A stretch of DNA of 64,000 bases from Eubacteriales bacterium. Lineage in GTDB: Bacteria > Bacillota > Clostridia > Oscillospirales > CAG-272. Numbering within the stretch: the first letter of the stretch is position 1; each line of letters starts with the position of its first letter. The position numbers and the translations under genes are program-made. Location: NCBI GenBank assembly GCA_045659405.1, contig JAZOWX010000015.1, forward strand, positions 9,143-73,142, written 5' to 3'. Positions 5,229 to 59,770 of this stretch are shown piece by piece. The notes under the pieces are model-generated. The model was not told where the DNA came from and did no database searches. It saw nothing but the letters and a program-made list of their open reading frames with translations.

Positions 5229-7910
5229 TTATTTTCTTCTGTCAACCGCTCTATGAATAAGCTTGATTGCCTCAACGATAGGTATTATGAGAATGGCAAG
5301 ACCGAATGCGATGCCGTATTCCATCAAGTCGAGGTGCGCAAGTTCAAACGCCTTTGCAAAGAAATCAACCTCAATTACAAGCGTTGTAAGCAGTAGCGAG
5401 AGTATTCCCGCACCCCACAGCCACACGTTTTGAGCCTTCATTTTGAATATTGAGCCGTGAAGCGACCTCATATTGAACGCATGGCATATTTCGCAAAGCG
5501 AAAGCGTAAGGAATGCCATAGAAGTACCAAGCATTTCGGCAGAATACGTTCCCTGCGCGATAGCATCCGCATGAGAAAAATCTGCAAGCCAAAATCTGCC
5601 TATCAGATAAGAAACCATAGTAATTACGGTAACGAGAACACCCTGGTATCCAACCGCAAAGCCAAGACCGCCCGCAAAAATACCTTCCTTGCTTTCACGT
5701 GGCTTGCGTTTCATAATACTTGCTTCGGGCTTCTCCATACCAAGGGCAAGTGCGGGGAAGCAATCCGTGATAAGGTTTATCCAAAGCAGATGAACCGGGG
5801 CGAAAATAGAAAATCCGAAAAGCGTAGCGAAGAAAATTGTCAGCACCTCTGACAAATTAGATGCAAGAAGGAACTGTATAGCTTTTCTTATATTGTCGTA
5901 AATTCTACGTCCCTCTCCGACAGCAGAAACTATTGTTGCAAAGTTGTCATCGGCAAGAATCATATCAGCTACGTTTTTTGTAACGTCAGTACCTGTTATT
6001 CCCATACCGACACCGATATCCGCATTCTTGATTGAGGGTGCGTCATTTACACCGTCACCCGTCATAGCGGTAACCTTGCCCTTGTTTCTCCATGCATTGA
6101 CAATTCTTGTTTTGTGTTCAGGCTGAACACGTGCATAAACGCTGTATTTCTCAACTGCCAGCTCGAATTCCTCATCCGAAATGTTATCAAGTTCAGCGCC
6201 CGTAATTGCCTGCGAGGCATCTGTTATTATGCCAAGCTCCGTGGCAATGGCAACTGCGGTATCCTTATGGTCTCCTGTAATCATTATCGGGCGGATACCT
6301 GCGCTTCGGCACTCGTTTATAGCATCCTTAACCTCAGGGCGGACGGGGTCTATCATACCCACAAGGCCGAGGAAGCAAAGCTCACATTCAACGTTCTGCG
6401 AGTCATATACTGACGGCTCGGCGGTAAGCTCACGCTTTGCAGCAGCAAGAACACGCAGAGCACGGTCCGCCATACTCTTATTGGCGGCGAGTATATTCGC
6501 ACGGATTTCATCGGTAAGCTGCACAACCTTTGAGTCAACCAATACCATAGTGCATCTCTTCAAAAGCTCATCGGGAGCGCCTTTTGTAAACTGAACAAGA
6601 GAGCCGTCCGAAGCCTTGTGTACCGTTGACATCATCTTTCTGCCCGAGTCAAACGGAACTTCGCCTATTCTGACAAGCACGTCCTTTTGAGTGTTCTTGG
6701 AAAGGCCCACTTTCTCGGCATAGTTGACAAGCGCACACTCGGTAGGCTCACCGACAGCGGCACCCACCTCTGTATCAAACTCTGCATCAGAGCAAAGCGA
6801 CATAGCATTTGCAAGAAGCGCCTCGTCATCACCGTAATGGTCCACAACGGTCATCTTATTCTGGGTAAGAGTACCTGTTTTATCCGAGCAGATAATCTGC
6901 GTACAGCCGAGAGTTTCAACAGCGGTAAGCTTACGTATTATTGCATTGCGCTTTGACATATTGGTAACACCGATAGAAAGAACAATGGTAACAACCGTAG
7001 CAAGTCCCTCGGGAATTGCCGCAACCGCAAGAGAAATAGCAATCATAAAGGATTCGAGAATAGGCTCAAAGCCGATACCCTCACGAATAAGCTGAATGCC
7101 GAAAATGACAACGCAAATACCGATAACGAGATAGGTAAGAATCCTTGAGAGGCCTGCAAGCTTAATCTGCAGGGGTGTTTTTCCCGCCTCCGCTTGAGCA
7201 AGTGCATCTGCTATCTTACCCATTTCGGTCTGCATTCCCGTGGCTGTTACAACCGCCTTTCCGCGTCCGTAAACAACGGTAGAGCCCATAAACACCATAT
7301 TTTTTCTGTCACCGAGGGCAACGTCACCGCCGACATCCGCCGTAAGAGCTTCGACTCTTTTATCAACGGGGACCGATTCGCCCGTCAGCGCCGCTTCCTC
7401 AATTTTCATAGAAGCGCATTCAATAATCCTGGCATCCGCAGGAACAGAATCTCCCGCTTCAAGAACTATTATATCACCCACAACAAGGTCTTCGCTTGAA
7501 ATGGAAATCTGTTTTCCGTCACGAATGACCTTACTCTGCGCCTTTGACATTTCCTGCAGAGCTTCGATTGCCTTTTCCGCTTTGCTTTCCTGGAAAACGC
7601 CCAAAATAGCATTGATAAGCACAACCGCAAGAATAATAACCACGTCCGAGGGGAAGCCCATATGGCCCGAATGAATACCCTCGTAAATTTCTACGCCTGC
7701 CGAAATTGCCGCAGCAACAAGCAGAATAATTGTCATAGGCTCACAAAGCTGTTTTAAGAAACGGTGGAGCAAGGACTCCTTTTTTGCTTCAACCAGCTTG
7801 TTCTTGCCGTCCCTCTCAAGGCGCTTTGCCGCCTCCGAGGAGGTAAGTCCATCGGTACTTGTGTGAAACTCGCCAAGAACCTTATCGGTGCTTTCGCAGT
7901 AAAACTTCAT
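5229..7910 (-). CDS. Calcium-translocating P-type ATPase (P2A/PMCA-SERCA-like)
   Basis: 893 aa with 'ICSDKTGTLTQNKM' (phosphorylation site), 'AAIPEGLATVVT' (M4 PEGL motif), 'MTGDGVNDAPSIKNADIGVGMG' and about 10 TM segments. Confidence 0.9.
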   Translation of the reverse strand: MKFYCESTDKVLGEFHTSTDGLTSSEAAKRLERDGKNKLVEAKKESLLHRFLKQLCEPMTIILLVAAAISAGVEIYEGIHSGHMGFPSDVVIILAVVLINAILGVFQESKAEKAIEALQEMSKAQSKVIRDGKQISISSEDLVVGDIIVLEAGDSVPADARIIECASMKIEEAALTGESVPVDKRVEALTADVGGDVALGDRKNMVFMGSTVVYGRGKAVVTATGMQTEMGKIADALAQAEAGKTPLQIKLAGLSRILTYLVIGICVVIFGIQLIREGIGFEPILESFMIAISLAVAAIPEGLATVVTIVLSIGVTNMSKRNAIIRKLTAVETLGCTQIICSDKTGTLTQNKMTVVDHYGDDEALLANAMSLCSDAEFDTEVGAAVGEPTECALVNYAEKVGLSKNTQKDVLVRIGEVPFDSGRKMMSTVHKASDGSLVQFTKGAPDELLKRCTMVLVDSKVVQLTDEIRANILAANKSMADRALRVLAAAKRELTAEPSVYDSQNVECELCFLGLVGMIDPVRPEVKDAINECRSAGIRPIMITGDHKDTAVAIATELGIITDASQAITGAELDNISDEEFELAVEKYSVYARVQPEHKTRIVNAWRNKGKVTAMTGDGVNDAPSIKNADIGVGMGITGTDVTKNVADMILADDNFATIVSAVGEGRRIYDNIRKAIQFLLASNLSEVLTIFFATLFGFSIFAPVHLLWINLITDCFPALALGMEKPEASIMKRKPRESKEGIFAGGLGFAVGYQGVLVTVITMVSYLIGRFWLADFSHADAIAQGTYSAEMLGTSMAFLTLSLCEICHAFNMRSLHGSIFKMKAQNVWLWGAGILSLLLTTLVIEVDFFAKAFELAHLDLMEYGIAFGLAILIIPIVEAIKLIHRAVDRRK

Positions 7911-8067
7911 TGTTTTCCTCCGTTTTATCTCATTTTTATTTTATTGTATTACCGTACAGGTAAATTATACCGCCAACCGTTCGCCCGAGTCAAGCAAATC
8001 GGCTTTAAATTAATGTTAAATCCAAATTAAGCTATATATAACAGAACCGCTTACAAATGGCAAGGAT

Positions 8068-8113
8068 AAAAAAACAGCGTGAATTGTCGGTTTAAGACCT
8101 CACGCTGTTTTTC
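8068..8113. terminator. Hairpin terminator downstream of the pseudogene
   Basis: acagcgtga (8074-8082) pairs with tcacgctgt (8100-8108). Flanked by an A-run and a T-run. Confidence 0.55.
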
Positions 8114-8155
8114 AATCTTGTTTTTGCGGTTAAATCCAAGCCGCAGCTGTTTTTA

Positions 8156-8786
8156 TCAGAATCCGAAGAGTGCCTTTTGCGTTTGTGCATCGGGAATTGT
8201 TCCGTATTCGCAAAGCTGGAACGCCTCGGCATATCTTACCTTTGAGCCACGCTCCACACCGTACTTTTCGATAAGCTGTTGTCTGAATCTTGCCGCTGTT
8301 TTTGCAAAGCGCACGGCATAGCCTCTGCCTGCCGCCATAACCTCGGCATCCGTAGTATCTCGGGTGATATTCATGCCCCGAAGCCACTCCTTACGTGCCT
8401 CTTCCTCCTCGGGAACGTCGGTGTAGCCGTTGTTATAGGGAAGCCACTCGTAAACCTGGCACTCGTTTAGATGAGCAATATGAAGCTTACCGTCTATAAC
8501 GTCGTCTATATCTACAACGTAGGTTGCCTCGAAATCCGGGTTCTTGAATCTGTCCTCGTAGTAAACGATTATCGGCATTTTGCGGGTACGTCGGGGCAGG
8601 TGTGAGGAACTGTAAGTATATAGGATGCATCCTGCACGAGCTGCGCTGCCGCTCTGTGGTCTGCGTGATAATCTATCGTGCGGTGAGAAATCTTACCTCG
8701 TGTCCAGCCTTTACGTATTTTTGAGCAAGTCCGCCAACACGGAACTCATTATCGTCCTGATGTGCGCCTATTGCAAGAATTTTCAT
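8156..8786 (-). pseudogene. Decayed PIG-L/LmbE family deacetylase, in three frame fragments with an internal deletion
   Basis: Fragment 1 (8786->8673): [37 protein letters not shown] with GGAGG upstream. Fragment 2 (8673->8569, shifted frame): [34 protein letters not shown]. Fragment 3 is ORF 8156..8578. The AHxDD and HxDH motifs are only ~30 codons apart. Confidence 0.7.
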
Positions 8787-8993
8787 AATTCCGCCTCCGA
8801 AATTTTAATATTACGTATTTTAGCATACCGCGTCTGATTTATCAAGCAAATTTGCAATATTGCAAAACAAAGAATCCAAATAAAAAGCTTGTGCAAAGGC
8901 TGCGGTGTGAAAATCGGCAAAAAGCCGCCCGCCGCTATTGACTTAATCTTAAAATATATGGTAAAATTATAAAAAAACGGGAGTGCCGAAATT

Positions 8994-10265
8994 ATGAGAC
9001 TTACAATACCGTACGGAAGCGAAAGCGTTTCCTTTGACGTTCCGGATAAAAATTTCTGCGAGCTGCTTGAGCCGCACGAGCCGCAGTTTGAAAATGATGC
9101 CGCCGAGGTCATAGAGGAGGCTCTTGATAACCCGATTGGCACACCGAAGCTCGAGCAAATCGTCAGCGGCAAAAAGACGGTCAGCATTATAGTTGACGAT
9201 ATGTCAAGGCCGACACCCGTGCATCTGATACTGCCGCCCGTTATGAAAAGGCTTCACGCGGCGGGTATTGAGCGTGAAAATATCAAGGTTATAATTGCTC
9301 TTGGCTCTCACCGCTATATGACCGAAGATGAGATTATTGCCAAGGTCGGTGAGGAAATTTACAAAAACTACCGTGTCATAAACTCCGAATTCAAGGACGA
9401 GGAGTCGCTCGTGCTTATGGGTACTGCCGAGGACGGAAGCAAGATTTACGTCACGGGCGAGGCGGCGCAGTCGGATATCAGAATCGGTATCGGAAACATA
9501 GTTCCACACCCCGTTATGGGCTGGAGCGGCGGCGGTAAAATACTCTTCCCCGGAATTTCGGGCGAGCGGACGGTTGCTCTTTTCCACCTTATGGGCGGCT
9601 TGCACCCAAACGGAAACCTTTTCGGCTGGGATGAATCCCCCGTGCGCCACTGCATTGAGGGCTGGGTTGACGTTATCGGCCTCGATTTCATCATAAACAC
9701 AGCGCTCACGGGTGATTTCCGCATATACCGTGCTGTCAGCGGTCATTACGTAAAGGCGCACAGAGAGGGCGTTAAATACGCTCGTGAAATCTGGGGCGCA
9801 AAGACGAGCAAAAAGGCGGATATTATGATTGTAAGCTCCTACCCCGCAGACCAGGATTTCTGGCAGTCGGGCAAAGGACTTTACTCGGCAGAGGGCGGCC
9901 TTGTGGATGAGGGAGGCACGATAATTCTCGTTTCCCCGAACTACGAGGGTGTCGGACCGCACCCGGAATTCCCCGAATATATGGGTGATGACGGTGCGCA
10001 CGAAAAGCTTGTACGTGCAAAGGACGACGACACAATCCCCGGTGACAGACTTGCAATGTCGGTAGGCACTGCAATGTGCAAAATGCGTCTGCGCCGTGAG
10101 ATAATAATGGTAAGCGACGGTGTTATGAAAGAGGACTGCGACACCTGCAAGATTGGCTACTATCCGCTTTCCAAGCTTCAGCAGGCGATAGACGATACAA
10201 TAGCAAAATACGAAAATCCGACAGTTTCTGTAATAAGCCACGGAGGAGAGCTTTATGTATATTGA
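8994..10265 (+). CDS. LarA-family (nickel-pincer lactate racemase-like, DUF2088) protein
   Basis: 423 aa. 'VSIIVDDMSRPTP' and 'IALGSHRYMT' resemble LarA N-domain motifs, and the length is typical for LarA homologs. Confidence 0.75.
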   Translation: MRLTIPYGSESVSFDVPDKNFCELLEPHEPQFENDAAEVIEEALDNPIGTPKLEQIVSGKKTVSIIVDDMSRPTPVHLILPPVMKRLHAAGIERENIKVIIALGSHRYMTEDEIIAKVGEEIYKNYRVINSEFKDEESLVLMGTAEDGSKIYVTGEAAQSDIRIGIGNIVPHPVMGWSGGGKILFPGISGERTVALFHLMGGLHPNGNLFGWDESPVRHCIEGWVDVIGLDFIINTALTGDFRIYRAVSGHYVKAHREGVKYAREIWGAKTSKKADIMIVSSYPADQDFWQSGKGLYSAEGGLVDEGGTIILVSPNYEGVGPHPEFPEYMGDDGAHEKLVRAKDDDTIPGDRLAMSVGTAMCKMRLRREIIMVSDGVMKEDCDTCKIGYYPLSKLQQAIDDTIAKYENPTVSVISHGGELYVY

Positions 10266-10695
10266 TTTCAAGCCTGACGGAAAATGCTATTACTGCGGCG
10301 ACGAGTGTATGCAGTATATGAAGCCTATATTCGAGAATGACTATGCGATATCCTATATGGCGGGATATCAGAAATACTATCCCGGCAGATGTATAGTTGT
10401 CCTCAAAGCGCACAAGGTGGAGCTTAACGAATTTACCCCCGAGGAGCTAAACGGCTTTTTCGAGGTCGTAAGCCGTGTTGCGGGCGCTATTCAGAAGGCT
10501 TTTCCCTGCGACAAGCTCAACTACGGCACCTGCGGCGACACAAACCCGCATTTCCATATGCACATAGTACCGAAAATCAAGGACGGCTACACCTGGGGCA
10601 AGCTCTTTGAGATGCTCCCACCCGAGGACGACAGAGTCCTCATTCCGATAGAGGAGCTTGACAAAATGATTGAAAAAATCAGGGCTTGTCTTTAA
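10255..10695 (+). CDS. HIT family protein
   Basis: 'NPHFHMHIVPK' histidine triad. The start overlaps the LarA-like gene by 11 nt, with GGAGGAG upstream. Confidence 0.8.
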   Translation: MYIDFKPDGKCYYCGDECMQYMKPIFENDYAISYMAGYQKYYPGRCIVVLKAHKVELNEFTPEELNGFFEVVSRVAGAIQKAFPCDKLNYGTCGDTNPHFHMHIVPKIKDGYTWGKLFEMLPPEDDRVLIPIEELDKMIEKIRACL

Positions 10696-10771
10696 TATAC
10701 ACCAATCTTCACAAAGAACCGCTCCGCAACAGAAAGCAGAGCTACCGACAAGGATAAGCGAGGAAAACTCT

Positions 10772-11902
10772 ATGAAAATAGTTGCAGCAATAGACTCCTT
10801 TAAGGGCAGCCTTACGACCTTTGACGCCGCAGAGGCGGCAAAGTGCGGAATACAGCGTGTATACCCCGATGCCGAGGTCGTGATATCTCCGATAGCCGAC
10901 GGCGGTGAGGGCACAGCGCAGGCAATAGTCTATGCAAACGGCGGTGTTATGCGAAGCGTTGCCACCTCGGGACCGCTCGGCGATACGGTCATTGCCGAAT
11001 ACGGTATTTGCGGTGAGGTTGCAATTATAGAAATGGCGGCGGCAAGCGGACTTCCTCTTGTGCCAACCGATAAAAGAAATCCGCTTTATACCGACACCTA
11101 CGGAACGGGTGAGCTTATACTCGACGCTTTGCGCCAGGGATGCCGCAAATTTATTATCGGTATCGGCGGCAGCGCCACGAATGACGGCGGTATAGGTATG
11201 CTGCGTGCGCTCGGCGCAAAATTTCTTGACGAGGGCGGAAATCCCGTCAGCCGTGGCGGTATCGGTCTTTCGGAGCTTCGGAAAATAGAGGTATCCGATA
11301 TGGCAAAGGAGCTTTCCGAGTGCAGCTTTACCGTTGCCTGCGACGTTACAAATCCCCTGTGCGGTGAGCGTGGGTGCAGTCGCATCTTTGCACCGCAAAA
11401 GGGAGCGGATGAAAAAATTATCACCGATATGGACTCCTGGCTTTCAAAATATGCCGAGCTGACAAAGACGGTAAATCCCACATCCGACCCAAATTATCCG
11501 GGGGCGGGAGCTGCCGGGGGTCTTGGCTTTGCCTTTCTTTCATTCCTCGGTGCGACACTCAAATCGGGTATAGATATAGTCATAGCCGAAACAGGACTTG
11601 AGGAGCATATAAAAACCGCAGATTTCGTCATTACGGGCGAGGGTCGGCTTGACGGTCAGTCGCTTATGGGTAAGGCGCCGATAGGCGTCGCTTCGATTGC
11701 AAAAAAATACGGGAAGCCCGTGATAGCAATTGCGGGCGGAGTCACGGATGATGCGATAGAAGCACACGGACACGGCATTGATGCAATCTTCCCGATTGTA
11801 AGAGGCCCGATAGCTCTTGCCGAGGCTATGAAGGAGGATGTTGCACGTAAAAACATTTCAGCTACGGTAGAGCAAATTTTCAGACTTATAAGCATAAAAT
11901 AA
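10772..11902 (+). CDS. Glycerate kinase
   Basis: ATG at 10772 after gagga. N-terminus 'MKIVAAIDSFKGSLT', plus 'IIGIGGSATNDGGIGML' and 'VITGEGRLDGQSLMGKAP', typical of the GlxK/GarK family. Confidence 0.85.
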   Translation: MKIVAAIDSFKGSLTTFDAAEAAKCGIQRVYPDAEVVISPIADGGEGTAQAIVYANGGVMRSVATSGPLGDTVIAEYGICGEVAIIEMAAASGLPLVPTDKRNPLYTDTYGTGELILDALRQGCRKFIIGIGGSATNDGGIGMLRALGAKFLDEGGNPVSRGGIGLSELRKIEVSDMAKELSECSFTVACDVTNPLCGERGCSRIFAPQKGADEKIITDMDSWLSKYAELTKTVNPTSDPNYPGAGAAGGLGFAFLSFLGATLKSGIDIVIAETGLEEHIKTADFVITGEGRLDGQSLMGKAPIGVASIAKKYGKPVIAIAGGVTDDAIEAHGHGIDAIFPIVRGPIALAEAMKEDVARKNISATVEQIFRLISIK

Positions 11903-53647: not shown

Positions 53648-54298
53648 TTATCCGTTCCAATATGTTGAAATATCCGAAAGATACGAATCCTCTGAATAGC
53701 TGATAGGCAGAAGCCGCTCACCGTCGTAAAGCACACGGCTTATAGAAGCGTTTGAGGGAAAATCAAGCTTCTCGCTCGCCTCGCCTTGGCTGTATCCGTA
53801 TATTTTTCCGAAAAACGCACGTATTGCGGCGGCGTGGGTGGCAATCAGAACACGTTTTCCGGGATTTTCACGGGCAATATCCAAAACGGCAGCGTGTATA
53901 CGCTCGGCAAGATGCGGCACCGACTCTGCGTCCACGCACCCAAATGATGCAAATTGAGTTTTCCATACAACCGAATACTCGTAGGGATATTCAGCTTTTA
54001 TCTTCTCAACCGCCATATTTTCCCATTTGCCGACGTTCATCTCACGAAGCTCTCTTTTCGCTACAATATTCATATTACGTATGCGTGCGTGCGGAAGAGC
54101 GGTATTGTATGCACGAATCAGATCACTTGAGTATATAGCGTCGATTTTTTCGTTTGCAAAATGCTCTGCACAAACCTCTGCCTGGTGATATCCGAGGCTC
54201 GAAAGGTCAAGATCGGTGTGACCGAGAAAAACGTGAGCTTCATTTCCAAGGCTCTGTCCGTGCCTTTCTATTAAAATTTCCGTGTATAAATTATTCAT
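53648..54298 (-). CDS. Histidine phosphatase (phosphoglycerate mutase-like) family protein
   Basis: ATG at 54298 after GGAG. 'ILIERHGQSLGN' (RHG motif) and 'IATHAAAIRA'. Confidence 0.8.
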   Translation of the reverse strand: MNNLYTEILIERHGQSLGNEAHVFLGHTDLDLSSLGYHQAEVCAEHFANEKIDAIYSSDLIRAYNTALPHARIRNMNIVAKRELREMNVGKWENMAVEKIKAEYPYEYSVVWKTQFASFGCVDAESVPHLAERIHAAVLDIARENPGKRVLIATHAAAIRAFFGKIYGYSQGEASEKLDFPSNASISRVLYDGERLLPISYSEDSYLSDISTYWNG

Positions 54299-55665
54299 TC
54301 GGTATCTCCGTTTCACAGTTTTCTGCGGCTTGTAAGGCTACAATATTTTTGCATATTTATTCATTTTTGCGTTTTCAAACATCTGAGCTATCGAACTAAA
54401 AAAATCGCATCCAAAGGCGATGAGCTGTACAGCCACACAAACCGATATAAGCCAACATAAGAATTATACATCAACAAAGCGCAAAGGTCAAGAGCCGAAG
54501 CATCAATGGCAAAAAACAAAACCAAAAAACAGAAAAAACAAAACCAAAAACAAAAAGCAAAAAAACAAAAAGCAAAAGCAAAAAAACAAAATATCAACCG
54601 TCGCAATCAGTCACACAGAAAGCTGCCTAACGAGCGGCAAAGCCAAAAGCCGCAAAGCTCCCTCAAGCACCCTGCAAAAAAGAGGACAGAGCCACCGTTC
54701 AAAAGCGCCCCGAAAGTGTAGTACAAAAAGACGACCTAAAATCGCCCAAAAAGCACCCTAAAAGCGAGCACGAAAAAGAACAGCCAAAACTGCGCGCACA
54801 AAAAGAAGTACATCACCAGCATCACCCCAAAAGCGTAGTGCAAAAAGAAGAACAGCGCCAAAATTTGCACAGAACGCTTCGGATAGAAAAACGCAAAAAT
54901 CCAAAAAGTTCCGCTAACAGCAAAGCAAAAAACGCAGCAACCCAAAGGAAGCAGCTGCGATAAAGGGGCAAAAAGCACCCTACGTCTTGTCACACAAGAC
55001 ACAAATCCAAGGCAGGAAAAACAGGGAACGTCTGTGCTTATTTATTCTTCTCTGTGCATTTTTATTCACCAATATAAGGAAATTTACTTTCGCACAAATT
55101 ACGAATTAAGCCACAAATTCACAGCAAAAATCGGTGCAAAAATCAGCTTTAAAACACGCCCTTTCGTAAAAGTTACAATCAAAATATGCAAAAACGCCAA
55201 AAATTTGTGCAAAAATCACCCGAGCAAAACAAATTTTCCATTTTTTGTCATAAAAGCCCATATTTTGCCATATTTTACCTTTTAAATCGCAAAATTTGCT
55301 TTTTCTAACAAAAAGAGCTGCGAAGCGCCACGGATGCCTCAAAAAACAGCCAAAAAACACACTAAAAGATCAAAAAACGTGGCAAAATAGCGTAAAAACA
55401 CCGAAAGCATGTCAAAAATACATCAAAACACACTGAAATACCACCCGAAGACCACACCCAAACACACCGCAACGGTTTAAAAAAGGATAAAAAGCGGCAA
55501 AAACAGCAGTAAATATCGGATTTTTGGACAAAATCAGCGCAAATTACCGCAAAAAAACAAACAAAAAGTTGCAGAAAAGGCGGCAATTTCAGGTAAAGGA
55601 AGCAGAGCAACCGCCACGGCTCTTGGCACAGCCACAAGCATTTGCCAAGCCAAAGCGCAAGAAAA

Positions 55666-55681
55666 TGTTTCACGTGAAACA
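55666..55681. promoter_or_regulatory. parS site 1 (perfect)
   Basis: TGTTTCACGTGAAACA, matching the Firmicute parS consensus tGTTNCACGTGAAACa. Confidence 0.85.
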
Positions 55682-55879
55682 CCCAAAAATCAAGCTTTAC
55701 CCACAAAATAGCCATATTTTGCTCAAAAAACAGCGTTTACCTGCATTTTTTCACGGTTTTTGTGCGGATTTTACCGATTTTGAGCTGTTGTGTGGCTCAA
55801 AAAGCGCCCCCTTGGGGTGAAATGCAGCCAAACAGCTAGATTTCAATCGTATATACCACAGTAACACCAGTGGCGCAAT

Positions 55880-55895
55880 TGTTTCACGTGGAACA
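55880..55895. promoter_or_regulatory. parS site 2 (one mismatch)
   Basis: TGTTTCACGTGgAACA. An extra GTGAAAC half-site lies at 55899-55905. Confidence 0.7.
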
Positions 55896-55924
55896 TTTGT
55901 GAAACCATATAGTTATCGAGGATT

Positions 55925-55940
55925 TGTTTCACGTGAAACA
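55925..55940. promoter_or_regulatory. parS site 3 (perfect)
   Basis: TGTTTCACGTGAAACA. Confidence 0.85.
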
Positions 55941-56417
55941 TTCGGCTCATCCGGACAGCCACGAGGGCTTGTTTTGTGATAAAAATCCGATTGTCCAAGT
56001 GTTGTGCAGAGGCAACGTGTGCCAGAGGCGCAAAAGCGGATATATAGCTGTGTTTGACCGATTTTGTGTCTTTTCAGCGTTGTTTTGCAAACTTTGGGCG
56101 GATTTTATTGTGTTTTTGTTGCGTTTCGCCGTGCTTTTGATGCGTTTTTGCCGTTTTGTAGCCTTGTTCTCTGTTTTTTTACCACCAACAACCGCTCTTT
56201 ACAGGCTTTGAGCTTTGCTTGTTCAAAGCTGCGCCTCACCTGTTTCTTGATACTGCCGCATCAGCAACTCCTCAGCTCACAACCTCTCGGCGCACGCCCT
56301 CGGTTTACAAACCTTGACTTACAGCCCTCGACTTACAATACATAGCGCACAGCGCTCAAAAGCAACACCAGTGGGTTTAAGATTGTTTAAACTTATTTAA
56401 ACACCCACACAATTTGA

Positions 56418-56433
56418 TGTTTCACGTGAAACA
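56418..56433. promoter_or_regulatory. parS site 4 (perfect)
   Basis: TGTTTCACGTGAAACA. Confidence 0.85.
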
Positions 56434-56479
56434 TATAGCTTTGCGCAGAAAAAGCGGTCAATTCAGGCGCTTTGCGCCG

Positions 56480-56495
56480 TGTTTCACGTGAAACA
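56480..56495. promoter_or_regulatory. parS site 5 (perfect)
   Basis: TGTTTCACGTGAAACA. Confidence 0.85.
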
Positions 56496-56835
56496 TTTGC
56501 TTTTTTACATCTAGAAGCCGCCACTTGACTTTGAACAGCCTTTTATCTTTTGAAGTCGCTATACAAAACAACACAAAAAGAACACAAAAAGCAAACATAT
56601 AGATAAATAAAAATGAAACCGTACACAGCGCAACCAACAAGCGGGGTGGCAAGGAAATTCAAAAAAGAGAGCAAAGATATCACCAAAACATAGTACAAAG
56701 CAGCTCGAACCTTGCCAAAATACTTTTAACGGTCTTTTTTTGGTTATACTTCGCCATTGAGCTATTGATTTCCCCGGTTTTTCTTTGCTGTGCGTCAATT
56801 AATTACCCGTTTCGCTTTACTGTGCAGTGATAAAT

Positions 56836-57084
56836 CTACGGTTTCACTCCGCCACAAAGCAATCGATTCCTCTTTTTTTGCTCTGTTATGCACCAAACAA
56901 CCCCACACTTCGCTTCGTTATGGAGCAACAAGCTCCCCTTTCTACTCTGATATGCGATAATAAACCCCTGATTTCACTTTGCTACGAGCAACAAGCTCCC
57001 TTTTTTGCTCTGGTATGCGATAACCAACCCAGGATTTCACTTTGCTACGGAGCAATCAACCCCTCTTTTTGCTTTGGTTTGTAG
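56836..57084 (+). repeat. About 4 tandem copies of a 62-66 bp repeat
   Basis: Units start at 56873, 56939 and 57001, with partial units at both ends. The shared core is ttttttgctctgNtatgcNa...(g/a)tttcac...gc(t/c)ac...agcaa...ctccc. Confidence 0.8.
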
Positions 57085-57201
57085 TAAATTCATTGCTGTT
57101 TTAGCTTCAAATCCCGTGTTTTGCTTTTCTTTGCGGTTCTTTCATTTTTATTGTATATTTATATACTATATATAATTATAAGGAAGATTTTTTTATTTAT
57201 A

Positions 57202-57230
57202 TTGACAAAGTCTTGCACTTTTGATATAAT
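57202..57230 (+). promoter_or_regulatory. Consensus sigma-A promoter upstream of soj/parA
   Basis: TTGACA (57202-57207), a 17-nt spacer ending in tga, then TATAAT (57225-57230). Embedded in an AT-rich tract at 57120-57240. Confidence 0.7.
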
Positions 57231-57278
57231 AATTATGTGAACTTATAACTTCTAACCGATTGGAGTAGCTTTTATTCT

Positions 57279-58040
57279 ATGGGAAAGGTTGTTTCTTTTT
57301 CTAACCAGAAAGGCGGCGTAGGAAAAACCACGTCCTGCGTCAATATTTCAGCACAAATAGCCAATAAGGGCAAAAAGGTGCTTATGATAGATATGGACCC
57401 TCAAGGCAATGCAACGAGCGGTCTTGGAATACAGAAATCAAAGATTAAAAAGACAATATACGACGTAATTATCGGAAAATGCGACATAAAAGATGCTATT
57501 ATCAAGACAAATTTCAAGAATTTGTCCGTAGTTCCGGCAAATATTGACCTCGCAGGCGCTGAAATAGAGCTTCACGACCTTGAGGAAGCGGAAAACTTCA
57601 CCAAGCTTGCGCTCGATTCGATAAAGGATAGCTTTGATTACATATTTATAGACTGTCCCCCCTCACTCGGAATGCTTACCGTAAAGGCTCTTACCGCTTC
57701 TGACGGTGTTGTAATACCGATGCAATGCGAATTTTACTCGCTTGAGGGTATGTCACAGCTTTTAAATACAGTAAAGAGAATAAGACAGCTCTATAATCCC
57801 ACGCTCCAGGTTGTCGGAATACTGCTCACAATGTACAACGGCAGACTCACTCTTACCTCCCAGGTTGTTGCGGAGCTTAAAAAGTACTATTCGGACAAGC
57901 TGTTCCGTGTTCCGATTTCAAGAACAGTAAGACTTTCGGAAGCTCCGGGTTACGGTGAGCCTATATGCTATCACGACCCCTACGGAAAGGGCGCTCTTGA
58001 GTATGCAGCCGTTTCAAAAGAGCTTATGATGCGCATTTAA
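57279..58040 (+). CDS. soj: Chromosome partitioning ATPase ParA/Soj
   Basis: 253 aa. Deviant Walker A 'SNQKGGVGKTTS', plus 'MIDMDPQGNATSGLG' and 'IFIDCPPSLG'. Confidence 0.9.
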   Translation: MGKVVSFSNQKGGVGKTTSCVNISAQIANKGKKVLMIDMDPQGNATSGLGIQKSKIKKTIYDVIIGKCDIKDAIIKTNFKNLSVVPANIDLAGAEIELHDLEEAENFTKLALDSIKDSFDYIFIDCPPSLGMLTVKALTASDGVVIPMQCEFYSLEGMSQLLNTVKRIRQLYNPTLQVVGILLTMYNGRLTLTSQVVAELKKYYSDKLFRVPISRTVRLSEAPGYGEPICYHDPYGKGALEYAAVSKELMMRI

Positions 58041-58093
58041 AGCGATAAAAAGCCGATTTTCTTACAAAATCAAACGAGTGTGAAACACTAAAA

Positions 58094-58194
58094 GACAGCA
58101 AAAAGATAGCAAAAAGACAATAAAAAGACGGCAAACAGACAGCAAAAAAGTCAGTAAAAAGTCAGTAAAAAGTCAACAAAGATACGACAAAAAA
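58094..58194 (+). repeat. Nine tandem ~11-bp A-tract units in the soj-spo0J spacer
   Basis: gacagcaaaaa gatagcaaaaa gacaataaaaa gacggcaaaca gacagcaaaaaa gtcagtaaaaa gtcagtaaaaa gtcaacaaa gatacgacaaaaaa. Confidence 0.85.
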
Positions 58195-58254: not shown

Positions 58255-59145
58255 ATGGCAAAGAAGAACAGCGGTCTTGGAAGAGGACTCGATGCAATTT
58301 TTCTTGACAATGCTACAACAGAGGGCACAGACAGCGAAAACAGAATAACAATCCTGAAGCTGTCGCTCATCGACCCGAACAAGGATCAGCCGAGAAAGAC
58401 GTTTGAAAAAGAACCGCTTGAGGAGCTTGCGGCTTCAATCTCGGAAAACGGACTTCTTCAGCCTATTCTTGTCAGAGAGTACGGTGACGGAAGATATCAG
58501 ATTATCGCAGGCGAGCGCAGATTCCGTGCATCAAAGCTTGCGGGACTTACCGAAGTTCCGACCATAGTTCTTGACAAGGATGACCGCCGTGCGGCAGAAA
58601 TTTCGCTGATAGAAAATATACAAAGAGAGGATTTGAATCCTCTTGAGGAAGCACTCGGCTACCGCTCGCTCGCAGAGCAGTACGGTATGACGCAGGAGGA
58701 AATTTCCGCAAGAACAGGAAAGAGCAGAAGCGCTGTTGCCAATATGATGCGTCTTCTCGACCTGCCCCGTGAGGTGCTTGACCTCGTTGGCGCACGCAGA
58801 CTTTCCGCAGGCCACGCAAGAACACTTCTCGGTCTTCGTGATAGCGGTATGATTATGGATATTGCAAATGCGGCAATAGACGGTGACCTCTCTGTACGCG
58901 CGCTTGAGGAGCTTGTTAAACGCACGAACAAGGCAGCCGCAAAGCCTAAAACCGAAGATGAAGCTCCGCTTCCGATTGTTGATTATTTCAGAGAGCTTGA
59001 GCTTCGTGTTCAATCCGCCCTCGGCAGACGCTGTGTAATTGAGGAAAAGGGCAGAAAGAAGAGAATATCTCTTTATTACGAGGATAACGAGGACCTCACA
59101 GAGCTTCTCGAATCCATCCTCGGAAAAGATTTTATGGATAATTAA
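58255..59145 (+). CDS. spo0J: Chromosome partitioning protein ParB/Spo0J
   Basis: 296 aa. 'GLGRGLDAIF', 'IIAGERRFRAS', 'LIENIQREDLNPLEEA' and an HTH 'TQEEISARTGKSRSAVANMMRLL'. Confidence 0.9.
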   Translation: MAKKNSGLGRGLDAIFLDNATTEGTDSENRITILKLSLIDPNKDQPRKTFEKEPLEELAASISENGLLQPILVREYGDGRYQIIAGERRFRASKLAGLTEVPTIVLDKDDRRAAEISLIENIQREDLNPLEEALGYRSLAEQYGMTQEEISARTGKSRSAVANMMRLLDLPREVLDLVGARRLSAGHARTLLGLRDSGMIMDIANAAIDGDLSVRALEELVKRTNKAAAKPKTEDEAPLPIVDYFRELELRVQSALGRRCVIEEKGRKKRISLYYEDNEDLTELLESILGKDFMDN

Positions 59146-59251
59146 TCGAAGATTTGCAAATATTTGTTGTCAAAAATCCGACTTTTCATATAAAATTTGC
59201 GAAGGCAAACCGTGTTTTTTCGCAACAAACCAACCGCAAATCAAATTTAAT

Positions 59252-59328
59252 TTAATCATAAATCAACTGTAATTTAATTATAAATCAACTATAAGCTAAT
59301 TATAAATCAATCATAAACTAATCATTTT
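59252..59328 (+). repeat. About 3.5 AT-rich direct repeats of ~22 bp
   Basis: ttaatcataaatcaactgtaat / ttaattataaatcaactataagc / taattataaatcaatcataaac / taatcatttt. Confidence 0.75.
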
Positions 59329-59341
59329 GATGCAATTCACC

Positions 59342-59542
59342 CAACCGAAAATTAAGCCTATGCCGAGCAGCCAAGGCGTGTTTGCTGTGTCTTTTGGCAA
59401 CCCGAAAGCACGTCACGACGGCTTAATCCAAGCAGGGAAATGGTGGTGAAAATCCACCGCAACAGCCATTACCGTAATAAGCCGAAAAATATATAGAATT
59501 TTTCAAAAATCTGCGGCTTTAAGTCGGAAGACCTGTCGGTTG
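59342..59542 (+). ncRNA. Cobalamin (B12) riboswitch aptamer
   Basis: The core 'agcaGGGAAatgGTGGTGAAAATCCACCgcaACaGCC' and the B12 box 'AAGTCGGAAGACCTGTCGG' are present. A closing P1 can form between caaccga (59342-59348) and tcggttg (59536-59542). About 200 nt. Confidence 0.7.
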
Positions 59543-59770
59543 ATACGTGTGTATTATTCAAAAGGGCATATAACAGTCGGATTGTTAAAAACCCAGGCTG
59601 TTTGACGCACCTTTATTACACACAGGTGTTTGGTATATATCCCTTGGGCAAAAGAGGGGATTCCAAACGGAGTTAAAGAATCGGACGTCGCATAAAAGTG
59701 AAAAAGCTATGCGTAAAGTCCCCTGAAAATGAAAATTTTCTCTATTCTTTTTGTAAACACCGCTTTGGAT

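Follow-up and report, generated by a model that had tools for sequence, protein, structure and literature searches.

Five 16-bp palindromes, packed into 830 bp of DNA beside parA and parB, are very probably the loading sites (parS) of a chromosomal ParABS system and, with the gene-free DNA that flanks them, are predicted to constitute its centromere. The palindromes lie 0.8–1.6 kb upstream of parA, in a 64-kb stretch of DNA that we refer to as the window. The arrangement is no oddity. Clustered parS sites next to parAB are the rule in the clade to which the organism belongs, and an array of five is towards the high end of what the clade shows.

Chromosomal parS was defined by the 16-bp palindrome tGTTNCACGTGAAACa, for which the consensus in PMC8299390 is TGTTCCACGTGAAACA. 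In the 64-kb window, the pattern search returned four perfect sites (TGTTTCACGTGAAACA) and one with a single mismatch (TGTTTCACGTGGAACA; positions of all features are in Table 1). These are the same five sites, at the same positions, that the original prediction had reported. Centre-to-centre, neighbouring sites are separated by 214, 45, 493, and 62 bp, and the two short spacings had been given correctly. With up to three mismatches allowed, no further match was found across the 64-kb window; parB is free of sites, as had been claimed, and so is parA. Shuffled sequence is expected to yield 0.01 matches at up to two mismatches and 0.39 at up to three. None of 100 shuffles gave five. The prediction had also drawn attention to extra GTGAAAC half-sites, at 55899 and 58080. 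Both exist. Note that the heptamer has 8 + 8 copies in the window, ten of them inside full parS sites, and the remaining six compare with about eight expected by chance. Since the extra half-sites occur at chance frequency, they carry little weight on their own. The half-site at 55899 may be a decayed parS site.

Table 1. Positions of the parS sites and of associated features in the window; entries for related loci are preceded by the name of the locus
Feature	Position	Strand	Description
His_Phos (histidine phosphatase) gene	53648-54316	-	left border of the gap
Gap holding the parS array	54317..57278	.	2.96 kb, ORF-free, flanked by divergent genes
Low-complexity tract	54400..55700	+	T-poor, A/C-rich, 1.3 kb
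Conserved non-coding DNA block	55088-55300	+	found with nhmmer, once per locus in 19-20 relatives
parS site 1	55666..55681	.	perfect palindrome, TGTTTCACGTGAAACA
parS site 2	55880..55895	.	one mismatch, TGTTTCACGTGGAACA
Lone GTGAAAC half-site	55899..55905	+	4 bp past site 2; chance frequency
parS site 3	55925..55940	.	perfect
parS site 4	56418..56433	.	perfect
parS site 5	56480..56495	.	perfect
63-bp tandem repeat	56874..57073	+	3.1 copies, between parS array and parA promoter
parAB sigma-70 promoter	57202..57230	+	perfect TTGACA-17-TATAAT with TG upstream
parA/soj	57279..58040	+	Walker-type ParA ATPase, 253 aa
Spacer A-tract repeat	58090..58180	+	8 copies, 11-bp phased A-tract, AAAAGACAGCA
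parB/spo0J	58255..59145	+	296 aa; ParB_N and HTH_ParB
Conserved block in relatives	L001 7318-7483; L005 7462-7673; L025 7004-7184; L028 2036-2204; L021 8523-8697; others		
Tandem repeats in relatives	L005 8538-8660; L006 8089-8233; L010 7058-7136; L025 8610-8876; L026 8255-8312; L031 8135-8204		
noc-like paralogue locus, example	L037 paralogue 8009-8611; parS 8956/9001/9049; parA 9221		

The genes next to the array encode both partner proteins. ParA is a deviant Walker A ATPase (AAA_31, 1.9e-70; CbiA, 1.3e-26) whose gene adjoins parB. The ParB translation matches ParB_N (3e-34) and HTH_ParB (2.2e-34), starts with an N-terminal LGRGLDAI segment, and carries the CTP-motif GERRFRA. Judged by sequence, these are the parts of a cognate ParB: an N-terminal ParA-activating peptide, a CTPase domain (GERRxRA), and the HTH_ParB domain. 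Against the TIGR00180 family model, the protein scores 200 bits, well above the cut-off of 58, while its score against the Noc model (233) is below the cut-off of 315. The best relatives of known structure (PDB entries 1vz0, 7bnk, 4umk, 6t1f, and 6sdk) are the chromosomal Spo0J/ParB proteins of Thermus, Myxococcus, Helicobacter, Caulobacter, and Bacillus. The match to KorB is weak (E 2.5e-17, versus 1e-54 for Spo0J). The assignment of the palindromes as parS is thus upheld, given the exact 16-bp consensus and adjoining ParA and ParB proteins, the latter passing tests for the chromosomal ParB family.

The two genes are separated by a 214-bp spacer. In the window, this contains no full parS, only the half-site at 58080, and in many relatives the equivalent spacer holds one or two parS sites. 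The A-tracts listed in Table 1 are strongly phased with the DNA helix (11-bp power, z = 11), so the spacer is predicted to be intrinsically curved. We looked for the same phasing throughout the gap upstream of parA, where it was not significant. Downstream of parB there are other features of the sequence. Immediately beyond the gene, at 59238-59322, an AT-rich unit of 22 bp (AAATCAACTATAATTTAATTAT) is repeated in tandem about four times, and the repeats look like iterons. Further on, at 59403-59554 of the plus strand, is a sub-threshold match to the cobalamin riboswitch (22.5 bits, against a gathering threshold of 31.5; E 0.012), which precedes a gene for a putative lipoprotein (start at around 59916). 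Compared with the nearest related locus (L001), the non-coding DNA of this region is 77% identical over 59421-59543 and 98% identical over 59625-59672.

The array had been described as intergenic, and every search of the gap agrees with this. There is no ORF of 120 aa or longer between 54317 and 57278, the ten longest ORFs of the gap have no Pfam match, and six-frame translations compared with 80 related loci revealed no conserved protein. This comparison, made with tblastn, gave just two marginal matches, one over parS and one over a conserved block of DNA. At gathering thresholds, Rfam had no match in the whole window. A permissive Rfam search for structured RNA, between 54000 and 60500, recovered only the riboswitch-like match downstream of parB. 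The right side of the gap contains the parAB promoter, and its tatATTGACA motif recurs in the gaps of 13 out of 25 relatives. The His_Phos gene, on the left, is weakly CobC-like (alpha-ribazole phosphatase model, below the cut-off). Elsewhere in the window there are genes for SpoIIE, SpoVAD, an ABC transporter, BatA/VWA/MoxR proteins, and a peptidase of family U32. This set of neighbours indicates the chromosome of a sporulating Clostridia bacterium.

A scan of species-representative genomes, based on ParB, identified 80 loci. The closest are from metagenome-assembled genomes of uncultured Eubacteriales or "Ruminococcus", from the guts of ruminants and other hosts. We defined a close clade by ParB identity of at least 59%, which gave 28 usable loci, each taken with 10 kb on either side. 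Two or more parS sites are present in 27 of these, and three or more in 21; the median is three and the maximum six. Altogether, the close clade has 93 sites, 75 no more than 4 kb upstream of parA and 18 in the parA-parB spacer. No parS was found within genes, or elsewhere within these 10 kb, at any of the 28 loci. Since the number of sites ranges from zero to six among close relatives, the exact number is not constrained. The sites are never closer than 35 bp, centre-to-centre, in the set of relatives, with a mode of 35–39 bp. A search for literature specifically on parS in Clostridia gave nothing relevant.

The gene order His_Phos, parS, parA, parB is shared by many species-level relatives. 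In compact cases, His_Phos, a conserved block, parS, the promoter, and parA follow one another within about 0.7 kb. The 3 kb found in the window is thus a lineage-specific expansion, with low-complexity and repeat DNA. At L001, where ParA and ParB are 98% and 90% identical to the window proteins, the gap between His_Phos and parA is 2.3 kb and has three parS sites, compared with five in the window. Except for one block, the two gaps cannot be aligned. The k-mers common to 25 gaps derive only from parS (often flanked by A/T), the proximal promoter, and that conserved block. Two loci differ in the operon itself: at L012 (parA 6203-6964, parB 10001-10879) and L020 (parA 6120-6881, parB 10001-10879), the genes are about 3 kb apart, versus the usual 0.2 kb or so, which suggests insertion into the operon. 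Other relatives have arrangements of their own. In a more distant Oscillospiraceae group (L035-L044), a noc-like ParB paralogue precedes three parS sites, parA, and parB, with sites 35–57 bp apart in an intergenic spacer of only 115–313 bp. In an uncultured Clostridiales (L060), there is a regular 39-bp tandem array with nine or ten parS sites (8723-9086), directly upstream of the parA promoter.

We examined the decay of sites using the window together with 32 close loci, amounting to 565 kb. The sample has 83 perfect sites, 19 with one mismatch, three with two mismatches, and four with three (2.2 are expected by chance); decayed copies are almost absent. Meanwhile, the DNA around the sites is unalignable between relatives, even with L001. 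Sites that are near-perfect or absent, while their flanks evolve freely, point to each being individually maintained. Hence, each parS appears to be under selection, although an alternative is that the copies are homogenised. The same pattern argues against the local duplication that had been proposed for the window because flanking words (aacaccagtgg, catatag) are repeated. The words are indeed there. Nevertheless, the flanks of the five sites resemble one another no more than random 60-mers drawn from the gap do, and we rejected local duplication for this reason. Of 40 comparisons, the one with the shared 11-mer reaches the 95th percentile. The higher scores arise because neighbouring parS sites fall within the flanks of one another.

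By analogy with chromosomal ParB proteins studied biochemically, a ParB dimer would bind each palindrome via the HTH domain. CTP, at the GERRxRA N-domain, would then close the dimer into a clamp, which would slide onto neighbouring DNA and free parS for reloading. This cycle of binding, CTP-dependent closure, and site reloading is outlined in PMC7053999. Five loading sites within 830 bp would multiply the loading flux, so that a dense ParB zone is expected over the gap and the parAB operon. The dense complex would activate ParA (Soj), for segregation of the origin region, and would probably load SMC. Note that, in this divergent and ORF-free setting, RNA polymerase is expected to move away from the array and not through it. 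We infer that five sites are beneficial. In single-molecule experiments, more parS sites mean a higher rate of ParB clamp loading and stronger condensation (PMC8299390). In Caulobacter, the spread of ParB from a single site covers only about 2 kb, and it has been suggested that clustering makes ParB locally denser; additional parS sites are best tolerated there beside the native cluster (PMC5815017).

We considered whether the array might mainly, or additionally, be a long-range operator. Clamps would then slide about 0.7–1.5 kb, to the promoters of parAB and/or His_Phos, and tune their expression, an autoregulation like that by KorB, a clamp of the ParB family. We regard this as unlikely. Consistent with an operator, the gap has just one strong promoter, with all of the parS sites upstream of it, and, in two compact relatives (L028 and L021), parS is about 40–60 bp upstream of the -35 element. 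Furthermore, KorB, a CTP-dependent clamp, can silence distant promoters, as outlined in PMC11790492, and in some species genes close to parS are silenced when ParB is overproduced (PMC7022226). However, loss of Spo0J in B. subtilis leaves the expression of parS-adjacent genes unchanged (PMC7022226). Among relatives, the last parS may be as little as about 40 bp or more than 2.5 kb away from the parA promoter, which is not operator-like, and no KorA-like partner is evident.

It is similarly unlikely that a single site matters and that the others are a nearly neutral by-product, having accumulated beside the centromere where sites do least harm. One parS suffices in P. aeruginosa and in C. glutamicum (the latter as outlined in PMC7083940), and a permissive zone for new sites has been argued for (PMC5815017). 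Turnover is also rapid, given three sites at L001 against five in the window, unalignable flanks, and zero to six sites across the clade. Yet extra copies, if neutral, should decay, and 83 of the 102 sites with no more than one mismatch are perfect, while relics with two or three mismatches are close to chance. At least three sites are kept in 21 of 28 relatives, and both loading and condensation increase in vitro as parS sites are added (PMC8299390). The perfect-or-absent spectrum therefore speaks against largely neutral multiplicity.

Leaving these alternatives and returning to a multi-site ParB loading zone, the gap also holds DNA other than parS. The conserved block (Table 1) always lies on the parA strand, between His_Phos and parS, in the 19–20 relatives that have it. 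It comprises two TTCG-N6-TTAC boxes, ATATGCA, (G)CA(T/A)AAATCACCCGAG, and 10-bp CCATnTTTT repeats. There is no ORF in the block, and RNAalifold returned zero pairs. Without conserved RNA pairing, the block looks like a protein-binding DNA element. Compared by eye with consensus sequences, the block bears no convincing resemblance to sigma-A or sporulation-sigma promoters, or to Spo0A boxes. When metagenomes were scanned for its core (TTTAC-N26-42-ATAAATCACCCGAG), 41 loci were returned; all were chance matches, and none had the block, parA, parB, or parS. The low-complexity tract, within which the block lies, has a T content of 4–20% per 100-bp bin, except for two bins at 32–35%. The A content reaches 70% per 100 bp, especially at 54506-54595, and there are degenerate CAAAAA/GCAAAAA units. 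A tract of like style is present at L001 but is not alignable with that of the window. In the DNA separating the parS cluster from the parA promoter, where the window has its 63-bp repeat, several relatives have unrelated tandem repeats with periods of 18–82 bp. This position is either an expansion hotspot or a place for lineage-specific binding arrays. We looked for a motif common to the repeats of the relatives, and k-mers were not enriched beyond parS, the promoter, and the block.

It is conceivable, but distinctly improbable, that all of these parts belong to an extended, clade-specific centromere. This would have three layers: the conserved module, a variable number of near-perfect parS sites, and fast-evolving gene-free DNA, of low complexity or in tandem repeats, that can reach 3–5 kb. 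The conserved module would bind a further factor associated with the centromere, which might stop ParB clamps as a boundary or roadblock, be a co-factor of SMC or ParB, or regulate parAB during development. In that case, the extended region would be analogous, on a small bacterial scale, to a regional centromere.

A further possibility, which we hold to be very improbable, is that the gap is, or contains, the replication origin, with parS as mere origin furniture. In the window, genes diverge from the gap, with about 29 kb of minus-strand genes leftward and all genes rightward on the plus strand. The region is AT-rich and repeat-rich, and cumulative GC skew falls to around 57 kb and then flattens, as could be the case if an origin were at this position or further right. 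Relatives give no consistent signal, and the divergence of gene orientation is not seen in them. An oriC typically combines clustered DnaA boxes with an AT-rich unwinding element, in most cases beside dnaA. The gap has a single DnaA box, with one mismatch, and boxes are not enriched in the window (17 observed versus 12.8 expected). Neither dnaA nor a cluster of DnaA boxes was found in the 64-kb window, the gaps of 20 relatives have no such clusters, and dnaA is absent from the 10 kb to either side in the close clade. Lacking a DnaA-box cluster, a nearby dnaA, and a general divergence, an origin within the gap is largely refuted. Finally, other dimeric factors might in principle recognise a palindrome centred on CACGTG, and ParABS cassettes do occur on mobile elements, but the chance that the sites belong to another regulator, or to the partition cassette of an integrated plasmid or ICE, is negligible: the full 16-mer is the universal chromosomal parS consensus, the His_Phos, parS, parA, parB order is syntenic in many species-level relatives, neighbouring genes have housekeeping or sporulation roles (SpoIIE, SpoVAD), and the ParB resembles chromosomal proteins rather than plasmid RepB or KorB.

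Read as a ParB loading zone, the array shows where the centromere lies in a Ruminococcus-like lineage of uncultured gut bacteria. In this branch of the Clostridia, tight intergenic parS clusters beside parAB, and not the dispersed pattern of Bacillus, are the norm. The result is incremental and leaves the ParABS model unchanged. Its main value lies in comparisons of centromere turnover and in the conserved block. The comparative set has two to nine sites per species, with flanks that turn over quickly and sites that are perfect or absent. Together with the L060 array, this provides material for the problem, posed by Tran et al. (PMC5815017), of how centromeres expand in bacteria and why parS sites gather side by side.

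How does the array compare with well-known partition systems? B. subtilis has ten dispersed parS sites, one of them inside spo0J. It resembles the window organism in being a sporulating Firmicute with the 16-bp consensus and a soj-spo0J pair, and the two ParB proteins have an equal set of domains and the same CTP motif. Unlike in B. subtilis, where the strongest sites are 5–39 kb apart (PMC5815017), the five parS sites of the window are intergenic and within 830 bp, with none in parB or elsewhere in the 64 kb. Hence, there is no dispersed organisation of the Bacillus type within the 64-kb window.

The sopC locus of plasmid F consists of twelve 43-bp repeats, each with one SopB site. Like the window array, it has many palindromes for a ParB-family protein, at short spacing, beside the partition operon. 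In contrast, the window array is chromosomal, with irregular spacing and unrelated flanks, and Tandem Repeats Finder detected no repeat over its sites. A tandem organisation of the sopC kind is present at L060, and its 39-bp array is a chromosomal analogue of sopC. With the KorB-OB system of RK2, the window shares palindromes upstream of promoters, at which CTP-dependent clamps load in the RK2 case (as outlined in PMC11790492). The window ParB differs in being a canonical chromosomal partition protein with no evident KorA partner.

The closest parallels are clustered chromosomal centromeres. According to a review, most species have several parS sites near oriC (PMC7022226). Caulobacter, with parS1-7, has its five strongest sites in 5 kb (PMC5815017), Myxococcus xanthus has 24 upstream of parAB (PMC3778016), and Corynebacterium glutamicum has ten (parS1-10) in 35 kb, nine of which are intergenic (PMC7083940). 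As in the window, these are multiple 16-bp consensus sites beside parAB, and they too have been read as raising the local density of ParB; the mostly intergenic placement in C. glutamicum is a further likeness. The original prediction regarded the tight array as a different organisation. This is borne out with respect to dispersed Bacillus sites, but the array is not distinctive, given the clusters already known and the 27 of 28 relatives with at least two sites, all beside parAB. Differences are of degree and context. Five sites in 0.83 kb is denser than five in 5 kb (Caulobacter) or ten in 35 kb (Corynebacterium). The gap that holds the window array is also unusually long, of low complexity, and free of ORFs; in Caulobacter crescentus, by contrast, the sites lie within genes that are essential or have a high fitness cost (PMC5815017). 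Lastly, the window array comes from a Firmicutes/Clostridia genome. We conclude that the window is a rather dense example of an already known type, the clustered centromere.
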